Part shown: positions 5,613 through 30,184 of the stretch, one piece after another | Position numbering within the stretch: position 1 is the stretch's first letter | How the letters are laid out: the number at the start of each line of letters is the position of its first letter | NCBI GenBank assembly: GCA_963675515.1 | Contig: OY776328.1 | Location: 1,470,001 to 1,502,000 of the forward strand | From: Coprobacillaceae bacterium | GTDB taxonomy: Bacteria; Bacillota_I; Bacilli_A; Erysipelotrichales; Coprobacillaceae | Length of the DNA: 32,000 bases | Direction: 5' to 3' | Notes under the pieces: generated by a model | What the model was told of the DNA's origin: nothing | Seen by the model: only the letters and a program-made list of their open reading frames with translations | Database searches by the model: none | Position numbers and translations under genes: made by a program

Positions 5613-6260
5613 TTGCTTCTTATTCGTAAATGCAGAGTTTTGATGGCCCAGAGCAACTCGGAAAAGTTCCTATACAGCTTATTTTATGAAGCTGACGCCT
5701 CATATATTGGTTCAGTATCTGAAGGTAAGGTTGGTAGATCCAGTGATAAGCAACCATTCCTAATCGTGCTATCAACTGATCAAGAAAACAAATATCCCAG
5801 GTTCGTAAAGTTGCGGCTAATCAAAACAGACAGCAAGAACGTCATGACCAGCAACATCAAAAAGTGCTGTGTTTTGGGCAAAGACCGTACACTAAATACC
5901 GATGGTACAAATACAACTGCAAGAGGTTAAAAAGTTGTACGCGGCAAAGACCGTACACTAAATACCGATGGTACAAATACCTGTAATGGTTTGAAAAAAC
6001 ACATAATCGTAAAGAATGAAAAAGTTGACTACAAGGAAAAGGGCCATCGATTAAAATGGATAAACATCGTCATTGGCAACATCCAGAATAACATCGTTGA
6101 AATATACCACGGAGTTCAAAAACGCGATTTGCCACTATTTTTAAACGAACAAGAATGGCGTTATAATCACAGATCTTCAGGAAACAGCATAATAGATAAA
6201 GTAAAACGATACATAAGAGAATCGACACCAGTAACCAAAAAGCAAATATCCAGCTTTTAG
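5613..6260 (+). pseudogene. IS1595-family (ISXO2-like DDE) transposase remnant, N-terminally truncated and interrupted by an in-frame stop
   Basis: Two same-frame ORF pieces (5613-5930, 5991-6260). ...DASYIGSVSEGKVGRSSDKQPFLIVLS..., ...LNTDGTNT... and ...WINIVIGNIQNNIVEIYHGVQKRDLPLFLNEQEWRYNHR resemble DDE_Tnp_IS1595. Only about 200 aa remain and the N-terminal Zn-ribbon part is missing. Confidence 0.65.
5877..5980. repeat. 38-bp perfect direct repeat (period 66 bp) inside the IS1595 remnant
   Basis: ggcaaagaccgtacactaaataccgatggtacaaatac occurs at 5877-5914 and again at 5943-5980. The 28-bp spacer carries the in-frame TAA at 5928-5930. Confidence 0.9.
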
Positions 6261-6336
6261 TTTTATCCGAACCTTATTTTGCAAGTACCTGAAGCATGTG
6301 GTCATTCAAATTAATTGTTAAAAGGAGAAATATATT

Positions 6337-12043: not shown

Positions 12044-12369
12044 AGTATTATGAATCACGGTAGATTAACCTTTATTAAAATTTTTTCACTGTTTTTGTGA
12101 TTTGCTTAACATGCGTTTAGTAATTTGAAAGAAGTTGACACTTAGGGAGAGTGGCCAATTCTAACAATTTTTAAGGTTCTATATTCAATCTGTTTTGTTT
12201 TATATATTCCTTATGAAATTGCAATGTAGTAGATTGATTATTTTTAAATTAACCGTAGTTCCCGGGTAGAGTTTCTAACCACTCTGCCTTTGCATTAGAC
12301 TGAATACGCGGAAACCCTTATATTTACTTGATTTTTTAACTTTCGAACACTTCCTTTTTATGCCAAATG

Positions 12370-12403
12370 TGGTATAATGTGGTTAGAAGATATTTCTAAC
12401 CAC
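12370..12403 (+). promoter_or_regulatory. Extended -10 promoter (TGgTATAAT) followed by a perfect palindrome of the IR core motif
   Basis: TG at 12370-12371 and TATAAT at 12373-12378. GTGGTTAGAA-gatat-TTCTAACCAC spans 12379-12403, and TTCTAACCAC is the inner core of both terminal IRs. Confidence 0.5.
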
Positions 12404-12417
12404 GAAGGGAGAAAACC

Positions 12418-13923
12418 ATGTTTATCGCTTATGATATCAAAAACGGAATTGAATATGGCAAGGTTTGCACCTCGATCCGTGAGGGAAAGAAAGTCAAGAA
12501 AACGTATACTAATCTCGGACGAGTTCTTGATAAAGAGCGCGGAATCTTTCAGAACCGGTCACTTGGTGTGTTCACCTATTCCGTTGAAAACGGCTATGGC
12601 AAATCACCTGTGGATTTTGTACCCGATTCAAACGGAGACAGAGGAAAGATGAAACTTATCCTGGACTTCGGAGACAGCTTCTTCATCAATGAATATCTGA
12701 AGCAAACAGGCTTGGATAAAGTAGTAGATGAGATCGGATACGGAAATCCGGATACCCTAAAAGCGATGCTTTCCTACTATATATTGTGTAACATGGCTAA
12801 CTGCAACGCCATTGACTGGTTCGAAGGCAACTATGCGAGAATCCTGTATCCAAAGGCAAACCTTACCAGCCAGCGGATTAGTGATTTTCTCACCGCTATC
12901 GGGGATGAATACTCGGAGCGTGAATTCTTCAAGGCATATTTGGAATTCCTGTTCAGTAAAGACAACACAATCAAGGAAACCGGGATACTGATTGACAGCA
13001 CTGGACTTCCTAACGATATCCACTTTCCCTTGACGGCCATCAGTAACCATAACGGTCATATAAGCAATGAGGTAAGGCTGATCTATGTGACCCAGCAGGA
13101 TACCGGAATGCCGATATACTTCCGTTATTGTCCAGGCAACGTCATCGATACACCCACATTGGTCAGAACCATAGCTGAGTTGAAGGAAAGTGGCGTCAAC
13201 ACTAAATTTGCCATTCTTGATGCCGGATACTATTCGGATGGTAATCTCCTGCACCTATATGAGAACAAGATATCATTCGTCACAAGACTTAAGGAAAACC
13301 TGAAGCTATACAAGCACCTGGTAAACAACCATCTCGATGGCATCCAGGATAAAGAGAATTTCGTAAGCTATAACAGCCGTTATGCCTATATCAAACGGGT
13401 TGAGTGCGAACTTGTTGAAGGTTACACCGGATATGCCTACATCGGTCTTGACCTTGATCGGAAATCGAGCGAAAGCCATAAGTTGTTCCAGAAGGCAAAA
13501 GATCAAAAACTCAGTGATGAAGACGTTTACGAGAAGATGAAAAACAAAGGAATATTCATTTTGGTCTCATCGAGACGCATAGCGAAGGATAAAATCCTGC
13601 CGCTTTACTATACCCGGCAACAGGTTGAACAAATTTTCGACATCAGCAAGAACTATGCGGATCTATTGCCCTTGCGAGTGCAAAATGAGGACACCTTCAG
13701 AGGCCACCTGTTGTTAACGTTCATCGCAACTGTGTTCTGTAAGATGGTTCAAGACAAGCTGAAGGGTACCAAAATGAATCCTCAATCCTTGTTCCTGAAC
13801 CTGCGAAACCAAAAATGCAAAGTATATGATAATGCTGTAATCACTCAAGAAGCTTTCAAGAAGGCGAATGACTGTTACAAAGCATTCGGTATTGAATGCC
13901 CGGTCAGAATACCGAAAACCTGA
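12418..13923 (+). CDS. DDE transposase, IS4 superfamily (IS1634-like N-terminus)
   Basis: 501 aa. Y-(2)-R-(3)-E-(6)-K signature in LYYTRQQVEQIFDISK. Candidate catalytic Asp residues in LIDSTGLP and ILDAGYYS. SD GAAGGGAG upstream. Confidence 0.85.
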   Translation: MFIAYDIKNGIEYGKVCTSIREGKKVKKTYTNLGRVLDKERGIFQNRSLGVFTYSVENGYGKSPVDFVPDSNGDRGKMKLILDFGDSFFINEYLKQTGLDKVVDEIGYGNPDTLKAMLSYYILCNMANCNAIDWFEGNYARILYPKANLTSQRISDFLTAIGDEYSEREFFKAYLEFLFSKDNTIKETGILIDSTGLPNDIHFPLTAISNHNGHISNEVRLIYVTQQDTGMPIYFRYCPGNVIDTPTLVRTIAELKESGVNTKFAILDAGYYSDGNLLHLYENKISFVTRLKENLKLYKHLVNNHLDGIQDKENFVSYNSRYAYIKRVECELVEGYTGYAYIGLDLDRKSSESHKLFQKAKDQKLSDEDVYEKMKNKGIFILVSSRRIAKDKILPLYYTRQQVEQIFDISKNYADLLPLRVQNEDTFRGHLLLTFIATVFCKMVQDKLKGTKMNPQSLFLNLRNQKCKVYDNAVITQEAFKKANDCYKAFGIECPVRIPKT

Positions 13924-14205
13924 TATGTGGTTAGAAAAACCACCCGGGAACTAAGGATTAATTATTGATAATGACATTATTTGTGAGTTGGAAATATTCA
14001 CCCATTGCTTGTGGCTCTGTCATGCTCAGTTAATGGTGCTATTACCTTTTTAGTATATGATTAAATGGTCAAGTTATATGTCGATTCCGGAGATGAACGA
14101 CTAAAAGAGATAGAAGATAAGGTAGAATGAGGTTTAGTGGTTATTTGTGCGATATGAAACTAACCGATTCTTAAACCATACAAACACGAAAGAGGGGGAT
14201 TTATT

Positions 14206-15375: not shown

Positions 15376-15569
15376 TACATTTAAAGTAAGGAATAATAAT
15401 TAAAAAGTGGATAAATTATTCATGTTTTTGATAATCATCAAGTGCATTCATTTGGAATAATATGCCGTTCCCCCCCTGTGTTAGAATAGTTGTTCATACA
15501 TTGTTTTCCAGATAACTTATTTCCGTTGGACCAAAAGAGTCTTATATTGAACAATATGTCCGCAAGTGA

Positions 15570-16250
15570 ATGTCAATAAATTTTCTTACCAATGGGGACA
15601 TTTTAATAGTTTACCAAAGTGATGGTGATGCGGACCGTTGCATTGCTGTAGACGAGTTCGGTCGGGTTGTCGATGGTGACAGCATTCTTTATGTATGCGG
15701 CAAGTATGCAAAAAGCCATGGTGAATTGGAGAACGACACTGTCGTGACGACAATCATGTCCAACCTGGGACTTTACAAGGCATTTGATGAACTGGATATC
15801 AAATATGAAAAAACCGCTGTAGGGGACAAATACGTCAATGAAAACATGGTAAACAACGGCCATGTCCTGGGCGGGGAACAATCGGGGCATATCATCTTTT
15901 CCAAGCATGCCACAACCGGTGATGGAATATTGACATCATTGAAGGTGATGGAAGCGATTATCGAATCGAAGAAGACATTGGCTCAGCTGACGGAAAACCT
16001 GGTTATCTATCCGCAGTTGATGAAAAACGTAAGGGTAAAAGACAAAAAGGCCGCGCAGGAACATCCAGCCGTGCAGGCGATCATCGCTGAAGTTGCCGAT
16101 GAATTGGGCAACAATGGTCGGGTCCTGGTCCGGGAATCGGGAACCGAACCGGTCATCAGGGTCATGGTCGAAGCGGCAACTGACAAGCTGTGTGAAAACC
16201 ATGTCAACAATATCGTACAAGTGATCAATCAATCGGGAGTGGCAATCTAG
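15570..16250 (+). pseudogene. glmM: Phosphoglucosamine mutase, C-terminal half only (5'-truncated)
   Basis: Recognisable from DGDADRCIAVDEFGRVVDGD (metal-binding loop, about nt 15618 onward) through GGEQSGHIIF and RESGTEPVIRVMVEA. The full protein is about 450 aa. Upstream sequence is AT-rich and unrelated, and the listed ATG is fortuitous. Confidence 0.8.
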
Positions 16251-16299: not shown

Positions 16300-16487
16300 T
16301 GTAATTATTTGTACGTTTTAAATGATTTGGAATATTAAAATACAGTAATGGTTAATTGAGGGGGATTATTTTGGAGAAAGAATATAAATTCAACCGGGAA
16401 ATGTATTCCCGGGAGTCACTAATCAAGGCTGCGTACAATTTCATTGATGATTACTATATCGGGCTGGATATGGATGAAGCTTACTAT

Positions 16488-17854
16488 GATAGTGTAAAAT
16501 ATTTTGTGTAAATAGGATTTCAACTTTTAAGTAGAAAAAAGGGTGCAACCCTTGTAAAATTAGTTCGACGAAAACAATTTACGAGAGGATTACACCCATG
16601 AACTATTTTACAACAACTTTACTTAGAAGTCTAATATCAAATGATAATAATCTGCCAGCTTTTGAGCAAGTAGTCTCAGAACTTTTCCGGAGCGAATTGG
16701 AGAATGCCATCAACGATATTTTGAAGTCCGAACTTACCGTTTTTCTTGATTATGAGAAATATGACCGATCTGAGAATTCGAATTCAAGAAATGGCTATTA
16801 CAACCGCGATTACAACACTAAATATGGTGTGTTGAACCTGCGCATACCACGTGACCGTCAAGGGGACTTTGATTCACCGCTGGTCCCTAAATATCAGCGA
16901 AACGATCTAGCTACCACCAACACTGTCATCGATCTATTTAATTCAGGGATGACCAACAGCGACATTGTAAAAACTGTTGAATCAATCTACGGCAAGAAAT
17001 ACTCCAGACAGACAGTTTCCAATATTACTAAGGAAATAGTTGCCCATGTTGAAGCCTTTAAAAATCGCCCGTTAAACAAGCAATACGCAGTTGTTTATAC
17101 CGACGCTACAGTTATTCCTTTGCGGCGCGATACCGTGTCTAAAGAGGCGGTTCATATCGCTATAGGAGTGACTCTAGAGGGAACAAAGGAAATACTAGGA
17201 TATTCAATTGCGCCAACCGAATCCGCAACAACATGGCGGGAACTGTTTGAAGAGTTCAAAACACGCGGTTTGGAAGCGGTTGCGTTATTCTGTACTGACG
17301 GGCTAACCGGTGTTGAGAACGCCATTGAAGACACTTTTCCGATGGCCAAAATCCAACGTTGCCTGGTGCATGTTTCAAGAAACATTACAGCCAAAGCAAG
17401 AGTGAAAGACCGTAGTGAGATTGCACAGGATTTTAAGCGAGTTTACAATTGCGAAACTGAAAAAGCGGCGAGTGAAGAGCTTAAGGAGTTCATCACCAAA
17501 TGGGGGCAAAAATACCCAAAAGTGGCAAAATCACTTGAAGAGAATTCAAATCTATTCACTTTCTATTTGTTCCCTGAATCGGTACGCAAGAGCATATATA
17601 CAACAAACCTGATCGAAGGTTTCAATAAACAGCTCAAGCGGAAAATCAAGGCTAAAGAACAATTCCCAAATGAGGAAGCTGTGGAGAAATACATCGTTTC
17701 GCAATTTGAACAATATAACCAAAAATTCATGAACCATACCCATAAGGGATTCAAAGGAATATCTTACGAACGTTGGTTCCTGCTAGAAGAAGAATAACCA
17801 AGATGATCAGTAAGAACTAATTTTACAAATTTACACAAAAATATTGACACTACC
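16488..17854 (+). mobile_element. IS256-family insertion sequence (1367 bp) with 8-bp target duplication
   Basis: Left end GATAGTGTAAAATATTTTGTGTAAA versus the reverse complement of the right end GGTAGTGTCAATATTTTTGTGTAAA. CTTACTAT occurs at 16480-16487 and 17855-17862. Confidence 0.9.
16598..17797 (+). CDS. IS256-family (mutator-type) transposase
   Basis: 399 aa. NSRNGYYNRDYNTKYGVLNLRIPRDRQGDFDSPLVPKYQR, VVYTDATVIP, FCTDGLTGVENAI and IQRCLVHVSRN are hallmark Transposase_mut motifs. Confidence 0.95.
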   Translation: MNYFTTTLLRSLISNDNNLPAFEQVVSELFRSELENAINDILKSELTVFLDYEKYDRSENSNSRNGYYNRDYNTKYGVLNLRIPRDRQGDFDSPLVPKYQRNDLATTNTVIDLFNSGMTNSDIVKTVESIYGKKYSRQTVSNITKEIVAHVEAFKNRPLNKQYAVVYTDATVIPLRRDTVSKEAVHIAIGVTLEGTKEILGYSIAPTESATTWRELFEEFKTRGLEAVALFCTDGLTGVENAIEDTFPMAKIQRCLVHVSRNITAKARVKDRSEIAQDFKRVYNCETEKAASEELKEFITKWGQKYPKVAKSLEENSNLFTFYLFPESVRKSIYTTNLIEGFNKQLKRKIKAKEQFPNEEAVEKYIVSQFEQYNQKFMNHTHKGFKGISYERWFLLEEE

Positions 17855-18091
17855 CTTACTATCTTGTGAAGATTGTTCCTAAAGACATTGCCAACGCTGG
17901 ATTGGATGCCGAGACATTCAAAAATGAAATCCTGATCCAGGAAACCCGGGCAGTGGTGGCTAAGCGTACGGGCAATTTGCGGGAAATGATCTATTCTCGA
18001 TCATTGGCTTCGACAATAGTTTCAGGGACCACACCTGAAGCGGGTGTCCAATGCCAAATGAATGCGCAAGACATCCTGGTGGACTGGTTTG

Positions 18092-18316
18092 ATGAAAATG
18101 AATAACAGAATGGATCTGCATCGGGACTTGTTCAGTGACAAGTTGATCTCACAAGCAATCGAAGACTATGCCCTTTTGGTGGACATCACCGTCGAGCATC
18201 GGGGCAATGATGACTACGCTAGGCTGTTATTCGATAATCCCAAATATGAACTGGCTTTGACAATGGCCGAGTTTCGCAATTACCTGATTGGATTGGTGCG
18301 CCAGGATGAATATTGA
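18092..18316 (+). CDS. Second, shorter HxsD-like small protein
   Basis: MKMNNRMDLHRDLFSDKLISQAIEDYALLVDITVE...ALTMAEFRNYLIGLVRQ has the same layout as the first gene (SLIKAAYNFIDDYYIGLDM ... ETFKNEILIQETR). The start is uncertain (18092, 18098 or 18110) and overlaps the upstream stop. Confidence 0.5.
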   Translation: MKMNNRMDLHRDLFSDKLISQAIEDYALLVDITVEHRGNDDYARLLFDNPKYELALTMAEFRNYLIGLVRQDEY

Positions 18317-19325
18317 TATCATATCCCTGTTAATGACCACTGCGTTTTCTTTGACCTGCGCCTTGATGGACTTGAAAGACGGCATTGTCAGGAATGCTGT
18401 CTTCAAGTATCTTGGGATTACTTTGGCGATGGTCAACCTGATGTTGGTCTATCTGAGTGTTGGGCCCGATTGGAAACGTTATGGGCTGTTCCTGGCGGTT
18501 GGAGTCATTATCTCGCTTATATTGTTCTACACGCATATCTGGGCCGGGGCGGATTGCAAGTTCTATGCGATAGTTGTTTTGTTGTTGCCTTGGCCCGTGG
18601 TCGTAGGCCAGGTATATGGCTTAAGCAATATTGTCGTCATTGTGATCCTGGCATTCTTGTATGGATATATGTACATATTGGGCGAGTCAATCTGGCAGTA
18701 CGCCAATAACAGGAAAGACCTGTTGGTTTGGCAAACTGTCAAATCGGATTTTGGCCACTATTTTAAGACGTATTTCTTGATTGTCCTGGCAAATGAAGTT
18801 ATCAATTCGCTGACTTCACTGTTTTTCCAGGTGACGATAAGCAATATCCTGCTGGTTGTTATCGATTATGCTCTTGTTGTTTGGGCGAACAAGTGGCGCT
18901 TGCTTGAAAACAAAATGATCGTGGCGACAATCATTATTGGCAACATTGCAATGCAGCTTTCGGGACTGATAAGCATATTGACCTTAATCAATCTCATGAT
19001 CTGGGCTGTGGTGATCTTGGCTCTGGTACTCAAGAATTTTGCAAGAAGTTTCAACTATAGGCAAATCGACCTTGGCGCTTTGGAAAAAGGGATGATCCTT
19101 TCAACCATGTCTTCAATCCAACTGGCAAGAAAAAGGTACTCGCGCTTCAAGAAGATTTCCGATGAATCATTGAACTCCCGTCTTGATGAACAGGACATTT
19201 TAGTTTTGCACCAGCTGGCATCTTCTTTAAAAACGCCTCAGGAGGTCTGTATTGTCAAGAAAATACCGTTCATCCTTTTCATTTATCTTGGCATCGCTTC
19301 TATCCTGATCATGGGGGCACTTTAA
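18306..19325 (+). CDS. Peptidase A24 (prepilin/preflagellin peptidase)-like polytopic membrane protein with a large internal or C-terminal expansion
   Basis: Candidate catalytic Asp motifs ALMDLKDGIVRN and IWAGADCKFYAIV (GxGDxK-like). C-terminal KKIPFILFIYLG resembles the IPFGP motif. About 339 aa versus about 160-250 for minimal A24 enzymes. The ATG at 18306 overlaps the upstream stop. Confidence 0.6.
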   Translation: MNIDIISLLMTTAFSLTCALMDLKDGIVRNAVFKYLGITLAMVNLMLVYLSVGPDWKRYGLFLAVGVIISLILFYTHIWAGADCKFYAIVVLLLPWPVVVGQVYGLSNIVVIVILAFLYGYMYILGESIWQYANNRKDLLVWQTVKSDFGHYFKTYFLIVLANEVINSLTSLFFQVTISNILLVVIDYALVVWANKWRLLENKMIVATIIIGNIAMQLSGLISILTLINLMIWAVVILALVLKNFARSFNYRQIDLGALEKGMILSTMSSIQLARKRYSRFKKISDESLNSRLDEQDILVLHQLASSLKTPQEVCIVKKIPFILFIYLGIASILIMGAL

Positions 19326-19326
19326 G

Positions 19327-20427
19327 ATGCTAAAAGTAAGTAATTATTTATATGGTACCCGGATGGCTTCGGTGGCCAAAAGCGAAGCGGTATTGAAGCG
19401 AATGATCGATTTGAATTATGATGTGTGCTATGTGGAGCGATCAAGTCTATGTTTTTATCCTGATGGCCTGAGGGTTCCGCTTGTTGATGATGAATATGAT
19501 GCGTTCCATGATCTTCCCGACTACAGCATCCTGGAATTCCGGGAAGGCAGGGCATATCTAAGCCATGATGCGAGTTCGCTCGACAACGCGATCTTCATAA
19601 CCAATCGGTGCAATTCCAACTGCATCATGTGTCCCACAAGCAATCATGTGCGTCGGCAAAGCGAGATTGCCGACATTGCCAATTTGCTCAAGTTGTGCCA
19701 CCAGATTCCCAGTGATGCTGCCCATCTGACGATCACCGGGGGCGAGCCTTTCCTATTGAAAGATGACCTTTTTGTCCTGCTGCAATACCTCAAGATCCAT
19801 AAGGGCAATATTGAATATCTCCTGCTGAGTAATGGTCGGGCTTTGGGGGATTACAATTATTTCACGAGATTCAAGGCCACTGTTCCGGAACATCTGCTGA
19901 TTGGCATCCCGTTGCACGGTTATGATGCAGCGACCCATGATCGTATAACCCGCAGCTCGGGCAGCATCAACCAGACTTATCAGGGTCTGAAATACCTGGC
20001 TTCGACTTGCATCAAGGTGGAATTGCGGATAGTAGTCAGTCGATTGAACATCGATTATATCGATGCCATCGCCAATCTGGTAATCAGGGAATTGGCTCAT
20101 GTCCAGGTCGTAACCTTCATCGGTTTGGAAATGCTGGGGAATGCCCGTCTAAACTTCGACCAGGTCTGGGTTGATTACCGCAGCTCCTTTGAAGCAATCA
20201 CAGGAGCCATCGACAACTTGATCGCTTCAGGCATCAATGTCGTTATCTACAATTATCCCTTGTGTTGCGTCCCGGAAAAGTATTGGTCGATTTGCCATCG
20301 CAGCATTTCGCCCGAGAAGGTGCGCCACTTGGATGAATGTCTCACATGCACTAAAAAGGACTACTGCGGAGGGATGTTTATGGGAACCTACAGACTGATG
20401 GAAGGAAAGGTAAAGGCAATAAGATGA
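19327..20427 (+). CDS. hxsC: Radical SAM protein, HxsC-type maturase
   Basis: ITNRCNSNCIMCP (CxxxCxxC), ITGGEPF, and a C-terminal Cys cluster CCVPEKYWSIC...CLTCTKKDYCGG. There is a 95-aa N-terminal extension before the cluster. The start lies 1 nt after the upstream stop. The C-versus-B assignment follows gene order and size, from memory. Confidence 0.75.
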   Translation: MLKVSNYLYGTRMASVAKSEAVLKRMIDLNYDVCYVERSSLCFYPDGLRVPLVDDEYDAFHDLPDYSILEFREGRAYLSHDASSLDNAIFITNRCNSNCIMCPTSNHVRRQSEIADIANLLKLCHQIPSDAAHLTITGGEPFLLKDDLFVLLQYLKIHKGNIEYLLLSNGRALGDYNYFTRFKATVPEHLLIGIPLHGYDAATHDRITRSSGSINQTYQGLKYLASTCIKVELRIVVSRLNIDYIDAIANLVIRELAHVQVVTFIGLEMLGNARLNFDQVWVDYRSSFEAITGAIDNLIASGINVVIYNYPLCCVPEKYWSICHRSISPEKVRHLDECLTCTKKDYCGGMFMGTYRLMEGKVKAIR

Positions 20428-21809
20428 TCGCACCATTCAATTTCAAGCAATTTGGCAACAAGATAATCATGACCAATGACCTGGGCCGTTATATGTTTGT
20501 CGAAAAGAAAGAATTCCAGGACTTGCTAAATGACAGGATGGATACCGGATCACAGTTGTACCGGGAACTTGAAGACAACTTCTTCGTATTCAACAGCTCC
20601 ATGGAGTATTTTGTGGAACGGATGAAACCCGAGCTGCGGACTGCCAAGAGCTATCTGTTTACAGCCACCAGCCTCCATATCTTTGTAGTCACCAACTACT
20701 GCAACTCCAATTGCGTCTATTGCCAGGCCAACAGCAATTGTTCCAATTCCAAGAAGGTTATGGACAGGGACATCGCCCGCAAGGCCGTTGACTTCGCCCT
20801 GCAGTCGCCTCAAAAACAGCTTACCTTTGAATTCCAGGGTGGGGAACCCTTAAGCAATTTCCCCATCATCAAGGAGATAGTGGAATATGCTTCCTCAAGG
20901 AAAAAAGACAAAGTCATCGCTTATACGATAGTATCCAACTTGTCGCTGCTCAATCAGGAGATGGTTGATTTTTTCAAGGAACATTGCATCTCGATTTCCA
21001 CCTCCCTGGACGGTCAGGCGGAGCTTCACAATCAAAACCGTCCCCTGGCTAACGGTGATGATTCTTTCGCCATCCAGAAAATGGCAATGGCCAGGCTCAA
21101 AGCCAACAAGATCGGTTATGGGGCCATCCAGACAACGACCCGGACAAGTCTTAAGTATGCCCGGGAGATAGTCGACCAGTATCTGGAGTTTGGTCTTTCC
21201 AATCTGTTTGTCCGGCCACTCACCCCGCTTGGCTGTGCTGCTTCAAGCTGGGATGATATCGGTTATACCGTTAAAGAATTCATTGATTTTTACAAGGACA
21301 CCATGCTGTATATTTTAAAATTGAATCAGCAGGGGACAATCATCAAGGAAGGACATGCCAGCATATTCCTGCAAAAGATAATCAACGGCTACGGTGTCAA
21401 CTACATGGAACTTCGTTCCCCTTGTGGGGCGGGTATCGGGCAGTTGGCATATTATTATGACGGCAACATCTTCACCTGCGATGAGGGCAGGATGCTCCAT
21501 GAAATGCATGACAGTTCGTTCAAGTTGGGAAATGTGGCGGATATGGATTATGACAGTCTGATGAATTCGAAATTATGCAAGACAGTCTGCAAGCACAGCA
21601 TCATCGAAAGCATTCCCAAATGCGCTGATTGTGTCTATATGCCATATTGCGGCACTTGCCCGGTAGTCAATTATGCCCTGGAGGGCGATATTATCCCCAA
21701 GTCGGTTGCCAATTACCGTTGCGAACTGTATGGCGGGATGCTCGAGACGATATTCGAACTGATCCAAAACGAAGACTACCTGAACATATTCAAGGAATGG
21801 GTGAAATGA
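20424..21809 (+). CDS. hxsB: Radical SAM/SPASM-domain protein, HxsB-type maturase
   Basis: VTNYCNSNCVYCQA, FQGGEPL, and a SPASM-like C-terminus (SPCGAG...DGNIFTC ... CADCVYMPYCGTCPV). ATGA overlap with hxsC at 20424-20427. Confidence 0.8.
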   Translation: MIAPFNFKQFGNKIIMTNDLGRYMFVEKKEFQDLLNDRMDTGSQLYRELEDNFFVFNSSMEYFVERMKPELRTAKSYLFTATSLHIFVVTNYCNSNCVYCQANSNCSNSKKVMDRDIARKAVDFALQSPQKQLTFEFQGGEPLSNFPIIKEIVEYASSRKKDKVIAYTIVSNLSLLNQEMVDFFKEHCISISTSLDGQAELHNQNRPLANGDDSFAIQKMAMARLKANKIGYGAIQTTTRTSLKYAREIVDQYLEFGLSNLFVRPLTPLGCAASSWDDIGYTVKEFIDFYKDTMLYILKLNQQGTIIKEGHASIFLQKIINGYGVNYMELRSPCGAGIGQLAYYYDGNIFTCDEGRMLHEMHDSSFKLGNVADMDYDSLMNSKLCKTVCKHSIIESIPKCADCVYMPYCGTCPVVNYALEGDIIPKSVANYRCELYGGMLETIFELIQNEDYLNIFKEWVK

Positions 21810-22744
21810 TGAACAAGATAAAAAAGATATTATCAAAAAAACTGTTAATAATTACTGTAATATTGTTTTCATTTGCCGGCATCGCAGTTGCGTATGGCGA
21901 AGACGAGTATGGCATCATCGAGAATTTCGACCTCTACCGGGAAAACTACGAGACTGGCCAACTCGAGACGGTGAATGGTATCTATTATGGCTCTATTGCC
22001 GAATTGAAGAGCGTTTCACATAGTGGCGAGTTTACCTTTGATGTGGGCGACAGCTATTCCGGCGAGTGGGACAATAAAACAATCGAAGGCTGGGGGACAT
22101 ACTCGTATGAAACCTTGGGTAGCTACACTGGTTATTTTGAAAACAATCTTCGAAGCGGCGAGGGTACCTTCAAATGGAGTGACGGGGGTGAGTATGTCGG
22201 CTACTGGGAGCTCGATAGATTATCCGGTACGGGGACTTACACTGCTCCCGAAAACTATGTCTTGAAGGGAACATTCAGTGGAAATAAATTTATCGCGGGA
22301 ACTGTCAAGACAACAATCGATGACACAGCCTATACTTATTATCTGGAAGACGGTACTTTTATCAATGCGATCGACATTGACTACTCCAACGGAAGCAATT
22401 ATCATGGCGACTATAAAGACGGTAAAATAAACGGTACGGGCATCATGAATTACAGCAACGGTGACCAATATAGTGGCCAATTCGGTTCCGGTCTGCGTGC
22501 AGTGATCGGAACGTACACCTGGAAAAACGGAGCCACGTACTCAGGAGATTGGAGCAACGACAAGATGAACGGCAAAGGCGTCTATACCTATCCCACAAAT
22601 GCCGCCGGAAAGTCGGTGTCTGGCAACTTCGTCAACAACAATATTACCGGAAGCAGCACTTACATCGACGATGATGGAAAAAAATTCGAAGTAATCTGGA
22701 GTAATGGCGTTTGCAAGCAGGTGAAAGGAGCAACCAATGATTGA
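21806..22744 (+). CDS. Secreted or anchored MORN-repeat protein
   Basis: Sec-type N-terminus MMNKIKKILSKKLLIITVILFSFAGIAVA/YG. At least 6 MORN-like units (YSGEWDNKTIEGWGTYSY, YTGYFENNLRSGEGTFKW, YVGYWELDRLSGTGTYT, YHGDYKDGKINGTGIMNY, YSGQFGSGLRAVIGTYTW, YSGDWSNDKMNGKGVYTY). ATGA overlap with hxsB at 21806-21809. The ORF-track start at 21629 is an upstream read-through. Confidence 0.85.
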   Translation: MMNKIKKILSKKLLIITVILFSFAGIAVAYGEDEYGIIENFDLYRENYETGQLETVNGIYYGSIAELKSVSHSGEFTFDVGDSYSGEWDNKTIEGWGTYSYETLGSYTGYFENNLRSGEGTFKWSDGGEYVGYWELDRLSGTGTYTAPENYVLKGTFSGNKFIAGTVKTTIDDTAYTYYLEDGTFINAIDIDYSNGSNYHGDYKDGKINGTGIMNYSNGDQYSGQFGSGLRAVIGTYTWKNGATYSGDWSNDKMNGKGVYTYPTNAAGKSVSGNFVNNNITGSSTYIDDDGKKFEVIWSNGVCKQVKGATND

Positions 22745-23273
22745 TAATTTTCCAACCATAAAAAAATCAATTGAGGATTTGATCAACGATGAAGAGGGTA
22801 ATATCCCAAGAGGCAAACTGATTACCATCGGTTCGACCCTGATGCTCATGGGGATGATCATGGGAATTGATGTCTATGCGACCCACGGTTCGCATAAGTC
22901 GCACTCGTCCCATTCATCTACCTCATATGTAAGATCGCATTCATCTACCTCATATGTAAGATCGCATTCATCGCACGGATCCCACACGTCACATGCTTCG
23001 CATGCAAGCAGCCAGACATCGGATGCTAGTACCCATGCGTCTCATTCCAATACTCACTCATCAGCACCGGCTCATGTAAATTCTAATACTACCCCAACCC
23101 ATATAAGCAATGCCGGTGGAAGTGTACCAGGGACCAGTGAGATCCCTGCACTTCAAACTCCGGTTCCTGATAATTTCGGTACGAATATACCAAACATTTC
23201 AACAGCGGTATCGTTCGAATTGGAAGTGGGGAAAACAATTGTTCCGGATTTCAAATTGGATAATGGCAAGTAA
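22737..23273 (+). CDS. hxsA: His-Xaa-Ser repeat protein (HxsA-type putative substrate)
   Basis: THGSHKSHSSHSSTSYVRSHSSTSYVRSHSSHGSHTSHASHAS...THASHSNTHSS contains about 12 H-x-S triplets. There is no Cys in the whole 178 aa. A hydrophilic 27-aa N-terminus precedes one hydrophobic segment. There is an 8-nt overlap with the MORN gene. Confidence 0.85.
   Translation: MIDNFPTIKKSIEDLINDEEGNIPRGKLITIGSTLMLMGMIMGIDVYATHGSHKSHSSHSSTSYVRSHSSTSYVRSHSSHGSHTSHASHASSQTSDASTHASHSNTHSSAPAHVNSNTTPTHISNAGGSVPGTSEIPALQTPVPDNFGTNIPNISTAVSFELEVGKTIVPDFKLDNGK
22911..22972 (+). repeat. Perfect 27-bp tandem duplication (2.3 copies) inside hxsA
   Basis: cattcatctacctcatatgtaagatcg occurs at 22911-22937 and 22938-22964, then cattcatc. 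It encodes HSSTSYVRS twice. Confidence 0.95.
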
Positions 23274-23970: not shown

Positions 23971-24264
23971 CTTTTCCCATAATATCTTGATTGCTTGAGA
24001 GATCGCCTCGCTGGTAATCTGATCAGTTTCCCTTAACAGGTTGGAGCGATTCCAAAACACATCGTTGAAATACGACAATTCCAATCCTATTTTCATTAAC
24101 GGAACGCAAATCCAGTTTGTCAGTCTTGATTTCCCAATCAGTACGTTTACATGATTCCCATTGTATTTCAATGAAAACTCACACTGGCTATCGGTGATAC
24201 TGATTAACTCAAGATTATTCTGCCAGACAATTCCATCATATTCGCATTTAAATGAGATCATCAT
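23956..24264 (-). CDS. Hypothetical protein (102 aa), last gene of the transposon operon
   Basis: 4-nt overlap with the ATPase gene stop. No recognisable motif. Confidence 0.45.
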   Translation of the reverse strand: MMISFKCEYDGIVWQNNLELISITDSQCEFSLKYNGNHVNVLIGKSRLTNWICVPLMKIGLELSYFNDVFWNRSNLLRETDQITSEAISQAIKILWEKKIIA

Positions 24265-25064
24265 ATATTGACCTCGTTAATTGTCTGCAGCGCAATATCG
24301 CTATCGATAACTTCGACACCTTTTATTGCACCGATAAACATCGCCCGGTCACATATCCTGTCGATTTCTCGGCACACACCGTTGGCGCCATTGATTATTG
24401 CTTCCAATGCGTTGTTGTCGAATACTTCCTGGATTGTCTTGGCCAGGAGCAACTTGTCCTTGATGTATGCATGTCCTTCCAGCTTATCTAATTGACCGAT
24501 ACTGTAGTTGACAATGATTCTTTGCGTTAATGAGTCATGAGCCCCAAACCGTAAATGTCGAATTATCGAAGGTAGACCAACCATCAAAATTACCGCATGG
24601 TTCTTGGAATCCATATCGAAGTTAAATATCATCTTTAAATCATTGAGTATCGCCGTACTCATATGGTTACACTCATCAAAGATGAATACCGGAGTGATCC
24701 GCTTTTCATAAACCAATTGGTAAATGGCGGTCTGGATATCCTTGAACAAGTCGTTTTTCCGATATCGAGGAATCAAATCAAGGGAATCCGCTAGTTGCAT
24801 ATAGAACTCCTTGACCGATAAAGTCGACATGGACAGGTAAATTATCTTGTAAGTGACCTTGGGCAGGTTGCTTACGTAGTTCCTGATCATGGTTGTCTTG
24901 CCACGTCCTGGTTCCCCAAGAATCATCCCGAATCCCTTTATTTCAAACAAACTGTCGAGCCTTATTTTCAGCTCTTTGTATTCCTTCGTTTCGATAAAAT
25001 TATTCTTATTGTTTTTAATGAATGGGTTGAACTCTAACCCATATCTGGTCCAGTATTTTTCCAT
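24261..25064 (-). CDS. AAA+ ATPase, TniB/ExeA/Tn552-p271-like transposition helper
   Basis: YWTRYGLEFNPF (ExeA-like N-terminus), Walker A GEPGRGKTT, Walker B PVFIFDECNHM. 267 aa, abutting the transposase gene with no gap. Confidence 0.85.
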   Translation of the reverse strand: MEKYWTRYGLEFNPFIKNNKNNFIETKEYKELKIRLDSLFEIKGFGMILGEPGRGKTTMIRNYVSNLPKVTYKIIYLSMSTLSVKEFYMQLADSLDLIPRYRKNDLFKDIQTAIYQLVYEKRITPVFIFDECNHMSTAILNDLKMIFNFDMDSKNHAVILMVGLPSIIRHLRFGAHDSLTQRIIVNYSIGQLDKLEGHAYIKDKLLLAKTIQEVFDNNALEAIINGANGVCREIDRICDRAMFIGAIKGVEVIDSDIALQTINEVNI

Positions 25065-26312
25065 CTAATCTTCTCCTGCGCATAACTTTGGTTTCACTCT
25101 AACTGCTGTTGCATTCGCATGTTTATCCAATAATTTGATTGGTTCTAATTCTCCTGTGTGTTTATTAACTACATAAACCTGGGACAAATCTGGAGCATAT
25201 CTAAAAACATGGCGCTCATTTGAATATATGTACTCAATTTCGTATTCTTTGTTTTCAATCTTGACCACCGAATCCACACTGACCTTTCTTTCCACTTCAA
25301 ACAGGAAGGTGTTATCGATGGACTCGTCGTTCAATCGCTTGATCAGGTTGCTTTCATGATAGAACCTTTCGCTAGGGGTCAAGCCATTCAGTGAAGAATG
25401 GACCCTTGTATTGTATTTGTGAATAAATTTGTTTAGATCGGTATTCAATTTCTCTAAATCATTGGTATAGTCAATCACATTTAATTGAGCAAAAAACTGT
25501 TTTTTTACAGTTGAGAAAAAGCGCTCAATCTTCGCCTTTCCAGTTGGTTCGAACGCTTTACAATAGCTAATTGTAGAATTTATTCTTGCGGCAGTCATCT
25601 GAATCTGGGAACTCTTATAGTTCGAACCATTATCAAACCGGAACATTTCTGGGACACCATACTTGGTAACTGCGCTTTTCATGGCATCCATTAGATTCAC
25701 CGTATTATCATTAAGATATATCCCCATATGGACTATCATTCTTGAAGCATCGTCAATCAAGGCAATCATATATGTCCGGCGCTTTTTACCGTTGATGTAA
25801 ATATATGGCCCAACTGAACTGTCGCCAGCCCACATCGAATTGATATGGCGGGCTTCATAACGCCTCATGTCCTTCTTGTTTGAAATACGCAGCTCAGCTT
25901 TGATTTCATTAACACAACGGTTGACTGTCGATAGGGAAACATCAGTCTTCTTTATTAATCCATCTTCAATCAGTTTTTCATAGATTACAGTTGCCGGCAA
26001 CCTAGGATAGGTTGTCTTATAGTGCTTTATGACCTCAATGACGTCGTCATCGAGTCTTCGCGATCTCCCGGCATCACTTCTCCCTTGTGGAATCAGGCCA
26101 TCAAATCCTTTAGTCTCATAAGCCTTGATCCATCTTCGGATGGTTGTATCGGACACGGTGAAATCACTACTGTCAAAATCCTTATAAATCTTTTTGGTTG
26201 CCTGCTCGATAGCCTGGGATTTTGTCCAAGATTGATCATAATTTCCGGTTATTATGTCATGAATTATCCTATGGCGCAATAAAGTAACAAATTCCTGTTC
26301 TTTTCTATTCAT
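25065..26312 (-). CDS. DDE transposase (rve/Mu-transposase-like; TnsB/TniA/Tn552-p480 class)
   Basis: Triad context WAGDSS, FDNGSNY and GKAKIERFF, with an N-terminal HTH region. The ORF opens at 26354, but GGGAGG plus 6 nt favours the ATG at 26312 (MNRKEQEF). Confidence 0.85.
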   Translation of the reverse strand: MNRKEQEFVTLLRHRIIHDIITGNYDQSWTKSQAIEQATKKIYKDFDSSDFTVSDTTIRRWIKAYETKGFDGLIPQGRSDAGRSRRLDDDVIEVIKHYKTTYPRLPATVIYEKLIEDGLIKKTDVSLSTVNRCVNEIKAELRISNKKDMRRYEARHINSMWAGDSSVGPYIYINGKKRRTYMIALIDDASRMIVHMGIYLNDNTVNLMDAMKSAVTKYGVPEMFRFDNGSNYKSSQIQMTAARINSTISYCKAFEPTGKAKIERFFSTVKKQFFAQLNVIDYTNDLEKLNTDLNKFIHKYNTRVHSSLNGLTPSERFYHESNLIKRLNDESIDNTFLFEVERKVSVDSVVKIENKEYEIEYIYSNERHVFRYAPDLSQVYVVNKHTGELEPIKLLDKHANATAVRVKPKLCAGED

Positions 26313-26360
26313 ATTGTTCCTCCCATCAGTACTATATAGGAGTTGATTGAACAAGTTAAC

Positions 26361-26915
26361 TTAGGCTATGTGGTTGAAGGTATATAGGATATTTGGGGTC
26401 ATTTTTACCTGCATGAACTGCACCAAATAATTTGAAAAACAGGAAATCACCAGGGTATTGAGATTACCCAAAGAGATGCGAAAAGTATTTAACCTCTCTT
26501 GCCAATGGTTTCGATATCTAAGTATGACATTATAAATCTCGCATTCACAAATCTCAGGATGACAATCAAGAATTAGTTTCAGACCGTTTTTACTACTTTG
26601 CTTTCTAATTATTTCAACCTGAACAGCCAATGGGATACTGGTATATGGAACGAGGTCGGAAAGTAAAATGGCATGGGTAACCCCACAATCCTTACATTTC
26701 AAGCGCATTATCCGCAACCTAAAAATTCCAAAAGGTAGCTTGACCTTTCGGAAGTAATAGCCATGAATGATGTGATTGCCGCCGCATGAGTTGACACAAC
26801 CGATGGAGTAACGGTTAATATCATTTACAGCTGCATCGTAAAAATCCTGTAGCTTTGATTCAGAATCGATTTCGAGTAATTTACTCTTGATTTTATCATT
26901 GTGATAAGTTATCAT
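26361..26915 (-). CDS. Cys-rich (putative zinc-binding) protein, first gene of the transposon operon
   Basis: 184 aa. GCVNSCGGNH ... KCKDCGVTH gives a CxxxC...CxxC arrangement. Family not recognised with certainty. Confidence 0.5.
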   Translation of the reverse strand: MITYHNDKIKSKLLEIDSESKLQDFYDAAVNDINRYSIGCVNSCGGNHIIHGYYFRKVKLPFGIFRLRIMRLKCKDCGVTHAILLSDLVPYTSIPLAVQVEIIRKQSSKNGLKLILDCHPEICECEIYNVILRYRNHWQERLNTFRISLGNLNTLVISCFSNYLVQFMQVKMTPNILYTFNHIA

Positions 26916-27128: not shown

Positions 27129-28799
27129 ATGTTTGTCAGAGCTGTTAAGAACAATAAAGGTAAAGATAATACCTATTTTTGTGCACTTGTTGAGTCTTAT
27201 CGTGAAAATGGTGTATCTAAACACCGCGTTCTTATTAATTTCGGTCTTGTAGACGGAGAAAGTGTTCCTTTCCTCAAAGCGGCTTTCGCTAAAAAGAAAC
27301 CAAGGTTGGTATACGATGATGAATAATGTAGTTAAGACTAATAAGATGACAGATTTCTTCAATTCTTTCGCGGATGTCTTGTCTTCTGACATCACTCGTA
27401 ATTTATCTAGGAACTTTAGTTCTAATTTTACTCGCAATCGGACTATGACTTTCAGGGATGTAATTCTCTACTTTGTTTTTAGAAATTCTAAGGACACTAA
27501 CACGGACTTGACCAAGTATTTCTGCTCCACTGACCGCTTGGAAAAAAGGATCACCAAGCAAGCTCTTAACGTCGATATCAAAAAACTCAATCCATCAGTA
27601 TTCAGATATTTATTCAAAGAGTTTGCCAAGGAGTTCTATCAAACAAGCTGCCTAAGACATATAAAGGGTATACGCTTTTAGCTGAAGATGGGACCTTTCT
27701 AGAAATTCCCTATAGCATCCACAATATTTATAACTTCGGCTTTTGGAAAAACCAGTACGTCAAAGATATTTTCGATGTTAAGAAAGTTCTGTCCAAATCA
27801 GCTGGACTATATGACGTCACCAACGGCATCTTTTTGGATTTCATGATGAGACCTGCCCCTTACTCAGAAATTCCACTTGCCTTCCAACACCTTTATAGTT
27901 GTGGGGATCTGTTGGCTGGCAAGAAAGTGATTTATCTTGCTGATCGCTACTATGGCTCAGTCGAGCTTATCAGTCATCTTGAGCACTTAGGATTTGATTA
28001 TTGCATCCGTGCCAAATCCAACTTCTTTAAAAAGCAAGTCAGTGAAATGACTTCAAATGATGAGTGGATCGAGGTAGATGTTGACAGGCTATGGCGGAAA
28101 AGATTCCGGTTCTCTGATGAAGCCCGTAAAATCAGAGAAGATAACCCCAAAGTGAAGATAAGAGTCGTAAAATTTACTTATGCATACAGTAATAAATTCG
28201 GGGAGTCCATTGAATCAGATATAACATACTTTACCAGTTTGTCAAAAGAAGAGTTCAGCCACGAGGATATCATCGAGCTCTATTCAAAGCGTTGGAATAT
28301 TGAGGTGGCATATAAAACGCTAAAAACCGATATGGAACTGGAACGACACGTTAGCGAATCCGACACCGTATCCCAATGCTGCATCTATGGCAAAATCGTG
28401 CTTTACAATATCTTGGGAGTGATCAGGAAAGAAATCGACAGGTATCTTAGCAGGCACCCGGGCAAGCACCGCCGCCGGCCTAATCGTGAAGAAACCTCCG
28501 ATAAAAATGATGAAGATAATATCCAGTACCAGGTCAACATCAAACAACTACATAATCTGCTGATGGAGAACAACCTGCTGTATCCGTTTTACAGTCATAA
28601 GAAAACACTGATGCGAAAAAGGATTAAGCAAATAGTTGCCGTAGCCCAAACAATAAAAGTGCCCGTCCGCAAGAACAGGCACAGTCAACGTTGGGGCAGA
28701 GTAGTTCCTAGTGGATTCTACTACCGATTCTCGCTTGATGGGCGAAACTATCCAAAAATTCAAACCATCAAAGGCGTCATGAGAACAGTTGCCCCGTAG
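27129..28799 (+). pseudogene. IS1634/IS4-family transposase, frameshifted
   Basis: N-terminus MFVRAVKNNKGKDNTYFCALVESYRENGVSKHRVLINFG is IS1634-like. The pieces lie in frames 3/1/3. The frame break at about 27655-27681 falls inside YKGYTLLAEDGTFLEIP (first catalytic D). Other motifs are YLADRYYGS (second D) and YSKRWNIEVAYKTLK (Y-2-R-3-E-6-K). Confidence 0.75.
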
Positions 28800-29404: not shown

Positions 29405-30184
29405 ATGTGCAAAGTCTTGAAAATCTCTCGGGCAACTCTCTACTACAAACCCAAAGGGCGTAAAGTGGATTCGAAGCTTGAAGATGAAGTAATAAAATCA
29501 TTCAAAAACAGCAAGAAGAATTATGGAACACGCAAGATAAAAGATGACCTGGATGATTTGAACATGGTTGCCAGCAGAAGAAAAATTGCTCAAATCATGG
29601 ACAAATACGGCTTGATCAGTAAATACACCATCAAGCAAAGACCAAAGCATTATGGCAAAGTAAATAATGACGATATTGAAAATCTGATCAATAGAAAATT
29701 CCAAGCAGAGCGGCCAATGCAATATTTAACCAGCGACTTGACCTACATCAAGGTGGCTGGAAAATGGAACTATATTTGTCTGATAATAGATTTATACAAT
29801 CGTGAAATCGTTGGTAAATCTAGTGGTCAAAACAAAGACGCCAACTTGGTTATTAAGGCATTAAACGATATAAAAAGTGATTTAAGTGATGTCGAAGTAT
29901 TTCATTCAGACCGAGGCTCAGAGTTCAAAAACGAGATGATTGATAGGATATTGGCATTGAATGGAATCAAGAGATCGTTGAGTGCAAAAGGTAAACCGAT
30001 TGATAACGCAGTATCAGAATCAATGTACAAAATACTCAAAACAGAATTCGCATTCAATCGACAATTCCGCAGTATCGACGAATTGTCATTGGAACTGTAT
30101 GATTATGTCAACTGGTTCAACAACAAAAGGAAGCATGGGAGCCTTAATTACAAAACACCCGTACAATACAGGTTGTCCTTATAA
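29405..30184 (+). CDS. IS3-family transposase OrfB (rve DDE domain), expressed by -1 frameshift from OrfA
   Basis: OrfB lies in the -1 frame relative to OrfA and is open from 29324, giving a 46-nt overlap window. Motifs: YLTSDLTYI, FHSDRGSEF, DNAVSESMYKILKTE and NNKRKHGSLNYKTP. Confidence 0.85.
   Translation: MCKVLKISRATLYYKPKGRKVDSKLEDEVIKSFKNSKKNYGTRKIKDDLDDLNMVASRRKIAQIMDKYGLISKYTIKQRPKHYGKVNNDDIENLINRKFQAERPMQYLTSDLTYIKVAGKWNYICLIIDLYNREIVGKSSGQNKDANLVIKALNDIKSDLSDVEVFHSDRGSEFKNEMIDRILALNGIKRSLSAKGKPIDNAVSESMYKILKTEFAFNRQFRSIDELSLELYDYVNWFNNKRKHGSLNYKTPVQYRLSL

Follow-up and report, generated by a model that had tools for sequence, protein, structure and literature searches.

An IS256-family insertion sequence within hxsD of a variant His-Xaa-Ser locus in a Coprobacillaceae bacterium

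In a 32,000-nt stretch of DNA from a Coprobacillaceae bacterium (assembly GCA_963675515.1, contig OY776328.1, positions 1,470,001 to 1,502,000; hereafter the window), two pieces of a gene resembling hxsD lie on either side of a transposase gene. This arrangement raises the question of what separated the two pieces, how long ago, and whether the strain retains a working His-Xaa-Ser (HXS) system. We consider it highly likely that an IS256-family insertion sequence (IS) inserted at codon 39/40 of hxsD with an 8-bp target duplication, that the hxs locus is otherwise intact, and that hxsD function has been lost. In the mechanism we propose, an active element of 1367 bp encoding a Mutator-type DDE transposase would have transposed into hxsD, the first gene of a seven-gene HXS radical S-adenosylmethionine (SAM) peptide-maturation locus, and duplicated 8 bp of its target, CTTACTAT. 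Without HxsD, the maturases HxsC and HxsB would be unable to process HxsA3, and the system would be off, as in the HXS system of E. coli. Downstream genes would perhaps still be transcribed by read-through from the transposase side, and rare precise excision between the 8-bp repeats might restore hxsD.

The element and its target

The interrupted gene and the element comprise the following features, given as positions in the window.

16358-16364, plus strand: Shine-Dalgarno sequence of hxsD, GAGGGGG, 6 nt 5' of the TTG start
16371-16487, plus strand: hxsD 5' fragment, codons 1-39; 26.5 bits against TIGR03976, profile positions 1-35
16480-16487, no strand: left copy of the 8-bp target-site duplication CTTACTAT; a single equivalent copy is present in relatives
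16488-17854, plus strand: IS256-family insertion sequence, 1367 bp, bounded by the duplication and by copies in L005, L006 and L007
16488-16513, plus strand: left terminal inverted repeat GATAGTGTAAAATATTTTGTGTAAAT, of the same type as the Enterococcus faecium element end GGATAGCATAAAATATCTTGTGTAAA
16598-17797, plus strand: transposase gene, 399 amino acids (aa), intact, in the same orientation as the hxs operon; the sole long open reading frame (ORF) in the element
17829-17854, plus strand: right terminal inverted repeat ATTTACACAAAAATATTGACACTACC, which holds an outward-facing TTGACA at 17844-17849
17855-17862, no strand: right copy of the 8-bp target-site duplication CTTACTAT, a perfect match to the left copy
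17863-18105, plus strand: hxsD 3' fragment, codons 40-119 and stop; 26.5 bits against TIGR03976, profile positions 44-87

The octamer that flanks the element has no third occurrence on either strand of the window, and the chance of an 8-mer match at two fixed positions is about 4^-8 = 1.5e-5. Between the two copies, the element starts with GATAGTGT and ends with GACACTACC. A repeat finder reported a terminal inverted repeat of 24 nt with 83% complementarity (16490-16513 versus 17829-17852); counted from the element tips, the repeat is 26 nt long and imperfect. The left-end 26-mer, with up to three mismatches allowed, has one match in the window and none in shuffled sequence. The boundaries were fixed independently by copies in other assemblies, which align over exactly 16488-17854.

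The transposase scores 387 bits against the IS256-family model NF033543 (cut-off 150; profile positions 2-337 of 338) and 386 bits against PF00872 (Transposase_mut; positions 18-377 of 379). The features used to recognize the family were a length of ~1.2-1.5 kb, one transposase ORF, imperfect inverted repeats of ~24-40 nt and a target duplication of 8-9 bp. The element has every one of those examined (transposase, size and single ORF, inverted repeats, and duplication), and is a member of the IS256 family. Members of this family transpose by a copy-out/paste-in mechanism via a circular intermediate. An earlier note on this DNA, made from the letters alone, had given the positions of the two octamers and described the ends as IS256-type. 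Both statements are borne out by the transposase models, the 8-bp duplication and the likeness of the ends to those of the E. faecium element.

Like IS256 of Staphylococcus and Enterococcus (Tn4001), the element has one Mutator-type DDE transposase of ~400 aa within ~1.3-1.4 kb, imperfect inverted repeats of ~26 nt, an 8-bp target duplication and an outward -35-like TTGACA in its right end. A further parallel is the inactivation of operon genes by insertion, as with icaC. Unlike IS256 itself, this is a separate element: its closest annotated relatives in a plasmid collection, represented by the E. faecium IS256-family transposase WP_002288791, share only ~60% protein identity, and a megablast search of the element DNA against that collection gave no match. 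The ends of the IS256-family element of E. faecium DO are similar in type (GGATAGCATAAAATATCTTGTGTAAA and TTGACGCTACCC), and the two elements have in common the termini GATAG..TAAAATAT.TTGTGTAAA and TTGAC.CTACC.

Removal of the element and one copy of the repeat yields a predicted empty site, 1375 bp shorter, that would read ...GAAGCTTACTATCTTGTGAAG.... Joining 16371-16487 to 17863-18105 gives 360 nt in a single frame (119 codons and a stop), in which ...GLDMDEAYY is followed directly by LVKIVPKD.... The reconstructed 119-aa protein scores 63.3 bits against TIGR03976 (cut-off 50; profile positions 1-87 of 90), with the match extending across the junction, whereas either half alone scores 26.5 bits and falls below the cut-off. 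Residues 58-68 (FKNEILIQETR) are invariant or nearly so among five relatives and by eye resemble the motif LLNDYxLRE, and AAYNFIDDYY (residues 19-28) lies where the N-terminal motif would be expected. Genes for HxsC, HxsB and a His-Xaa-Ser repeat protein, all above their model cut-offs, lie within 5 kb downstream. Judged by its match to the family profile, the split gene is hxsD (TIGR03976 / PF27806) once reconstructed. The in-frame 119-aa reconstruction had been put forward in the earlier note, and all of its coordinates and frame statements are correct. The HxsD-like identity proposed there has now passed the alignment test, and neither half contains a stop or a frameshift, in agreement with the reported absence of extra lesions. 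The public annotation presents the 3' fragment as an ordinary 79-aa coding sequence starting at GTG 17866, with an HxsD Pfam match, and not as a disrupted gene; the case shows how a pseudogene fragment can be listed as an ordinary protein.

Additional evidence for the interruption came from relatives, which were sought in 5.8 billion protein clusters. Four uninterrupted HxsD relatives were found (P0001, P0002, P0003 and P0005, with 83, 70, 66 and 50% identity), and all four align without a gap across residues 39/40. A fifth sequence, P0004 (79 aa, 99% identical), is this genome's own annotated 3' fragment. Three related loci (L001-L003) have an unbroken hxsD, followed as here by a 74-aa hxsD-like gene, a gene for a membrane protein of ~340 aa, hxsC and hxsB. 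The L001 DNA (~80% identity) is collinear through the reconstructed junction, whereas its alignment to the actual window breaks at the IS boundaries. The equivalent of the octamer is present at the site as a single copy in the relatives (CTCATTAT in L001). The Shine-Dalgarno sequence and TTG start of hxsD are conserved in all four loci (this one and L001-L003), and this conservation supports the start that the earlier note had assigned to the gene.

Mobility of the element and age of the insertion

Copies of the element are present in other assemblies. Two contigs of one Erysipelotrichaceae metagenome-assembled genome (MAG), L005 and L006, carry full-length copies with 91-92% identity, and a third contig of the same MAG breaks inside a copy. 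A scan of GTDB species representatives with the 30-nt left end gave matches only in this MAG. A metagenome contig from the European Nucleotide Archive (ENA), L007, carries a copy that is 99.85% identical and sits at an unrelated site. One of the two differences lies outside the ORF and the other is synonymous; the transposase protein is identical. A literature search for PRJEB18470, the sample with this near-identical copy, found no paper. The full-length copies have the following positions, and an 8-bp flanking direct repeat was found at none of them.

L005, 6336-7701: full-length IS copy
L006, 3016-4382: full-length IS copy
L007, 128-1494: full-length IS copy

Because the L007 copy has only 2 differences in 1367 nt and an unrelated location, the element has moved recently. 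It is a distinct member of the IS256 family, apparently functional and mobile in recent times. The L007 copy shows that the element was lately active, yet it gives no date for the hxsD insertion itself.

A 200-bp stretch of the window at 6112-6310 (plus strand), upstream of a gene for an 831-aa pyruvyl-transferase/FrhB-like protein, is 77% identical to L006 2679-2874, which adjoins an IS copy in the Erysipelotrichaceae MAG. The two may share an intergenic sequence or a small mobile one.

Misassembly at IS elements is a well-known problem, and the copies on MAG and metagenome contigs lack target duplications, as expected for chimeric joins. The interruption of hxsD could then itself be an artefact, with a repeat misplaced in the assembly and hxsD intact in the actual chromosome. 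We regard this as very improbable. A misplaced repeat would not yield a perfect 8-bp duplication at the exact termini of the element with the two gene halves in register, and the length of the public source contig, 2.88 Mb, is suggestive of a finished chromosome.

The age of the insertion was approached through the substitutions in hxsD. The ratio of nonsynonymous to synonymous substitution rates (dN/dS) for the split hxsD versus L001 is 0.145 (5' half, 0.088; 3' half, 0.178), compared with 0.16-0.19 for the intact neighbours and 0.107 for the intact pair L001/L002. There is no detectable relaxation of constraint at the scale of the divergence from L001 (synonymous divergence, dS, ~0.65). In a simulation of neutral substitution, the probability that the ORF stays open and the duplication stays perfect was 0.48 at 2% divergence, 0.16 at 5% and 0.06 at 8%. 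Measured against the divergence between species, the insertion is young, and it can be called recent only in the loose sense of well under ~0.08 neutral substitutions per site. The claim of a recent event in the earlier note stands insofar as the halves are free of lesions and evolve like their neighbours. As to timing it holds only in a loose sense: the age is only loosely bounded, and no empty site from the same species has been found.

Consequences for hxsD and the downstream genes

As present, the 5' ORF acquires seven IS-encoded codons (DSVKYFV) and stops at 16511; its product would be 46 aa long, with 39 HxsD residues followed by the seven from the IS. A GTG is present in the 3' fragment at 17866, but no purine-rich ribosome-binding site precedes it. 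Reconstructed HxsD was modelled with AlphaFold2; the model has a mean predicted local distance difference test score (pLDDT) of 73.9, with values of 82-90 over residues 1-70. Its layout is a strand at 3-8, a helix at 14-22, strands at 28-34 and 38-45, and helices at 55-75, 78-93 and 107-117. Because the junction falls inside the third strand (38-45), the IS is predicted to cut through the HxsD fold rather than between domains, and a product of the 3' fragment would probably lack the N-terminal strand-helix-strand part of the fold. A Foldseek search of the model against the PDB gave nothing with an E-value below 0.05 or a template modelling score (TM-score) above 0.32, and offered no structural clue to function. 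We infer that hxsD is inactivated and that the strain is very probably a natural hxsD knockout. This is in line with the earlier suggestion of a natural hxsD mutant, since intact relatives are collinear and the halves fail the HxsD model; the functional part of that suggestion would follow by analogy with E. coli.

In 2026, hxsD was reported to be essential for a system in E. coli that defends against phage-DNA entry (Li et al., Nat Commun, PMC13128918). In that system, HxsA is no longer processed and phage defence is lost when hxsD is deleted, or when either its N-terminal LYW motif or its LLNDYxLRE motif is mutated; HxsD and HxsC form a complex (PMC13128918). By analogy, the hxs system described here should be off without HxsD. 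With hxsD experimentally tied to phage defence (PMC13128918), the knockout now has a concrete predicted phenotype.

Since the transposase gene is co-oriented with the operon and no terminator is predicted between the transposase stop codon and the IS end, read-through is possible and may transcribe the downstream hxs genes. The ATG of the hxsD-like gene overlaps the hxsD stop codon, and any translational coupling from hxsD to the hxsD-like gene may have been lost. IS256-type ends are able to form hybrid promoters (PMC9330008). The outward TTGACA at 17844-17849 corresponds to TTGACG in the E. faecium relative (L008, ~1628-1633). A hybrid promoter built on this TTGACA was considered and rejected: the hexamers 16-18 nt downstream (GTGAAG, TGAAGA and GAAGAT) match TATAAT at no more than three of six positions, and a promoter scan called no site after the TTGACA.

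These features bear on whether the insertion is instead an old one, fixed in the lineage, with hxsD dispensable by virtue of the HxsD-like gene and the IS tolerated or even useful, for example as a supplier of downstream transcription. A second HxsD-family gene (NF038315) does lie directly downstream of hxsD; HxsD is missing from a few HXS systems (Li et al., PMC13128918); and the IS is co-oriented with the operon and lacks a predicted terminator, while its right end carries the outward TTGACA. The lesion-free state of the gene halves also limits the age of the insertion only loosely. While these observations are consistent with a long-standing, tolerated insertion, such a history is decidedly unlikely. 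Both hxsD and the HxsD-like gene are retained under purifying selection (dN/dS ~0.15) in each of the three related loci, the two proteins share no pairwise similarity (BLASTP gave no alignment), and dN/dS of the split hxsD is not raised. Given the lack of similarity and the retention of both genes under purifying selection in relatives, the HxsD-like gene is unlikely to compensate for the loss of HxsD. A role in supplying transcription is not supported by the sequence after the TTGACA, where no properly spaced -10 element is found and the promoter scan is negative, and the 99.85%-identical copy at another site points to current mobility rather than to a fossil IS.

Several observations weigh against a recent knockout of hxsD that switched the system off. 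We found no conspecific genome or metagenome in which the site is empty, the protein database at >=90% identity holds only this genome's fragment, and a scan of Joint Genome Institute (JGI) metagenomes for relatives of the reconstructed HxsD gave 134 pattern matches, 0 of them confirmed. Because no same-species empty site was found, the timing of the insertion is not anchored, and an intact ORF with a perfect duplication still has a probability of ~16% at 5% neutral divergence. The 8-bp rule is verified only at the hxsD site, since the copies in L005, L006 and L007 lack a target duplication. These copies lie on MAG and metagenome contigs, which may be chimeric at repeats, and for this reason we place little weight on the missing duplications; they may reflect chimeric assembly at repeats or recombination between copies. 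The predicted loss of function and of defence is extrapolated from a proteobacterial four-gene system with another gene order and another type of HxsA, and the extra HxsD-like gene could conceivably compensate.

If the knockout by insertion is accepted, the perfect 8-bp repeats raise the question of reversal. Precise, transposase-independent excision of IS256 that restores the target is documented (Hennig & Ziebuhr 2008, as described in secondary sources), and precise excision restoring gene function has also been credited to Ziebuhr 1999 (likewise as cited in secondary sources). In Staphylococcus epidermidis, precise excision of IS256 is reported to be orders of magnitude rarer than insertion (PMC13640169). 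By analogy, hxsD could in principle revert through precise excision between the perfect 8-bp repeats. The earlier suggestion that the mutation could be revertible holds to the extent that the repeats would permit precise excision, but it leans on the analogy with IS256 of S. epidermidis, where excision is rare. The likeness to the ica insertions of S. epidermidis lies in an insertion with an 8-bp duplication into a non-essential accessory gene, with reversion by precise excision possible. The cases differ in the gene and the organism, and in that only the inserted state is observed here, with no alternation.

A stronger form of this idea is that the IS acts as a reversible on/off switch, with IS-mediated phase variation of hxs as was once proposed for IS256 in the ica operon. 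The perfect 8-bp repeats would be a substrate for precise excision, and the restoration of function reported for IS256 (Ziebuhr 1999, Hennig & Ziebuhr 2008, both through secondary sources) would fit. The literature that reports the rarity of excision relative to insertion also questions its role as a true switch (PMC13640169), and there is no sign here of repeated use of the site or of a mixed population. We consider a switch extremely doubtful. As a gene disruption the event is commonplace, and the element adds a new member to an IS family already known. It gains a little further interest from recent functional studies of hxsD and from the locus it disables, the architecture of which is unusual and uncharacterised.

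The hxs locus and its surroundings

The seven-gene locus spans 16371-23273 on the plus strand and encodes, in order, HxsD, an HxsD-like protein, a membrane protein, HxsC, HxsB, a MORN-repeat protein and HxsA3. The hxsD-like gene, hxsC, hxsB and hxsA3 are full-length, and hxsD carries the only lesion in the locus.

18095-18316, plus strand: hxsD-like gene, 73 aa; 47.9 bits against NF038315 (HxsD_rel), cut-off 41; present in L001-L003
18306-19325, plus strand: gene for a polytopic membrane protein; 23.6 bits against PF01478, under the gathering score of 26.5
L001 756-1610, L002 925-1944 and L003 687-1274: genes for the membrane protein in the related loci
19327-20427, plus strand: hxsC, radical SAM maturase, intact; 286.3 bits against TIGR03977, cut-off 267.9
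20424-21809, plus strand: hxsB, radical SAM/SPASM maturase, intact; 526.7 bits against TIGR03978, cut-off 370
21806-22744, plus strand: gene for a MORN-repeat protein; 79.9 bits against PF02493 in four stretches; start approximate, with an ATG that overlaps the hxsB stop
22737-23273, plus strand: hxsA3, His-Xaa-Ser repeat protein; 96.3 bits against NF038309 (HisXaaSer_A3), cut-off 65

In HxsA3, the presumed substrate or effector of the locus, HxS repeats come after a hydrophobic segment, and the protein gave no Pfam match at an E-value of 0.01 or below. The MORN-repeat protein also has a hydrophobic segment at its N-terminus. The ORF of the membrane protein is open from 18288, and its start in relatives corresponds to the ATG at 18306. 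No NCBIfam model covers this protein. It has weak similarity to prepilin peptidases (A24), and its residue D28 and GADCK motif are invariant in the four loci, as are two aspartate motifs, MDLKDGIV(R/K)N and WAGADCKFY. The membrane protein could be a dedicated protease for the His-Xaa-Ser protein. For E. coli, we know of no enzyme to which the N-terminal processing of the His-Xaa-Ser protein has been assigned.

The four HXS components, HxsA, HxsB, HxsC and HxsD, are all detected at the locus, the last of them interrupted. As in E. coli, the locus has HxsD (once reconstructed), HxsC, HxsB and a His-Xaa-Ser protein, and here each passes its NCBIfam model. The differences are also clear. Among described HXS systems, 99.6% are ordered D-B-C-A and 99.7% are in Pseudomonadota (Li et al. 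2026, PMC13128918), whereas this locus runs D, D-like, membrane protein, C, B, MORN, A3, an order that L002 follows up to the end of its contig. The repeat protein is of the HxsA3 type, with a hydrophobic anchor and without a detectable peptidoglycan-binding domain, and the host, unlike E. coli, is probably a Gram-positive member of the Bacillota and so would have no periplasm. Relatives of the IS likewise lead to the Erysipelotrichaceae, a family of Bacillota. The locus is not a canonical HXS system, and an anti-phage role of the variant would be a hypothesis by analogy. A PADLOC scan of the locus proteins found only generic radical-SAM similarity to viperins, which has no bearing on a defence function; PADLOC 2.0.0 is without a model for the HXS system. 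To our knowledge, almost nothing is known about non-proteobacterial hxs variants. With hxsD knocked out by one clean and potentially revertible lesion, and the variant locus otherwise intact, the strain amounts to a natural experiment. It is unlikely, but would be informative, that the gene is the hxsD of an uncharacterised Gram-positive seven-gene version of HXS, with an A24-type aspartyl-peptidase-like membrane protein among its products, and the strain a revertible null in which rare precise excision under phage pressure re-activates the system. If true, this would show whether the variant is a barrier to phage entry, and whether trimming of the His-Xaa-Ser protein is done by the membrane protein as the protease so far missing.

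On one side the hxs locus is flanked by a surface-polysaccharide gene cluster, and on the other by a stretch rich in mobile elements. Neither an Rfam nor a tRNA scan of the window found anything. The window contains at least five different mobile elements. Mobile DNA has clearly remodelled this region time and again, and the IS in hxsD fits this pattern.

Directly upstream of hxsD, glmM (15570-16250, plus strand) is present only as a 3' fragment, truncated at its 5' end. The fragment covers positions 237-441 of 442 of the phosphoglucosamine mutase model (267 bits, under the cut-off of 447) and is without the N-terminal half that bears the catalytic serine. The 195 bp upstream of the fragment (15376-15569) are AT-rich and non-coding. 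Since the 3' end of glmM also precedes hxsD in L001 and L002, the adjacency of the two genes is ancestral and the truncation a separate event.

Further to the left, an IS1634-family element occupies ~12250-13955 (plus strand), in the intergenic region between a nucleotidyltransferase gene and ugd. It has inverted ends ...GTAGTTCCCGGGTAGAGTTTCTAACCAC and GTGGTTAGAAAAACCACCCGGGAACTAAGG and a transposase gene at 12418-13923 (501 aa; 126.8 bits, cut-off 100). To the right of hxsA3, genes on the minus strand at 24261-26915 encode three proteins of 429, 267 and 184 aa, respectively an rve-type transposase with helix-turn-helix domains, an AAA_22 ATPase and a DUF6431 protein, a module that resembles TniA/TniB or IS21-like transposition modules. 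Transposase genes at 27834-28799 and 29405-30184 (plus strand) encode a DDE_Tnp_1 protein and an IS3-type OrfB integrase-core protein, respectively. Both genes were called as fragments, and the DDE_Tnp_1 protein matches only the C-terminal part of its profile (positions 76-200).

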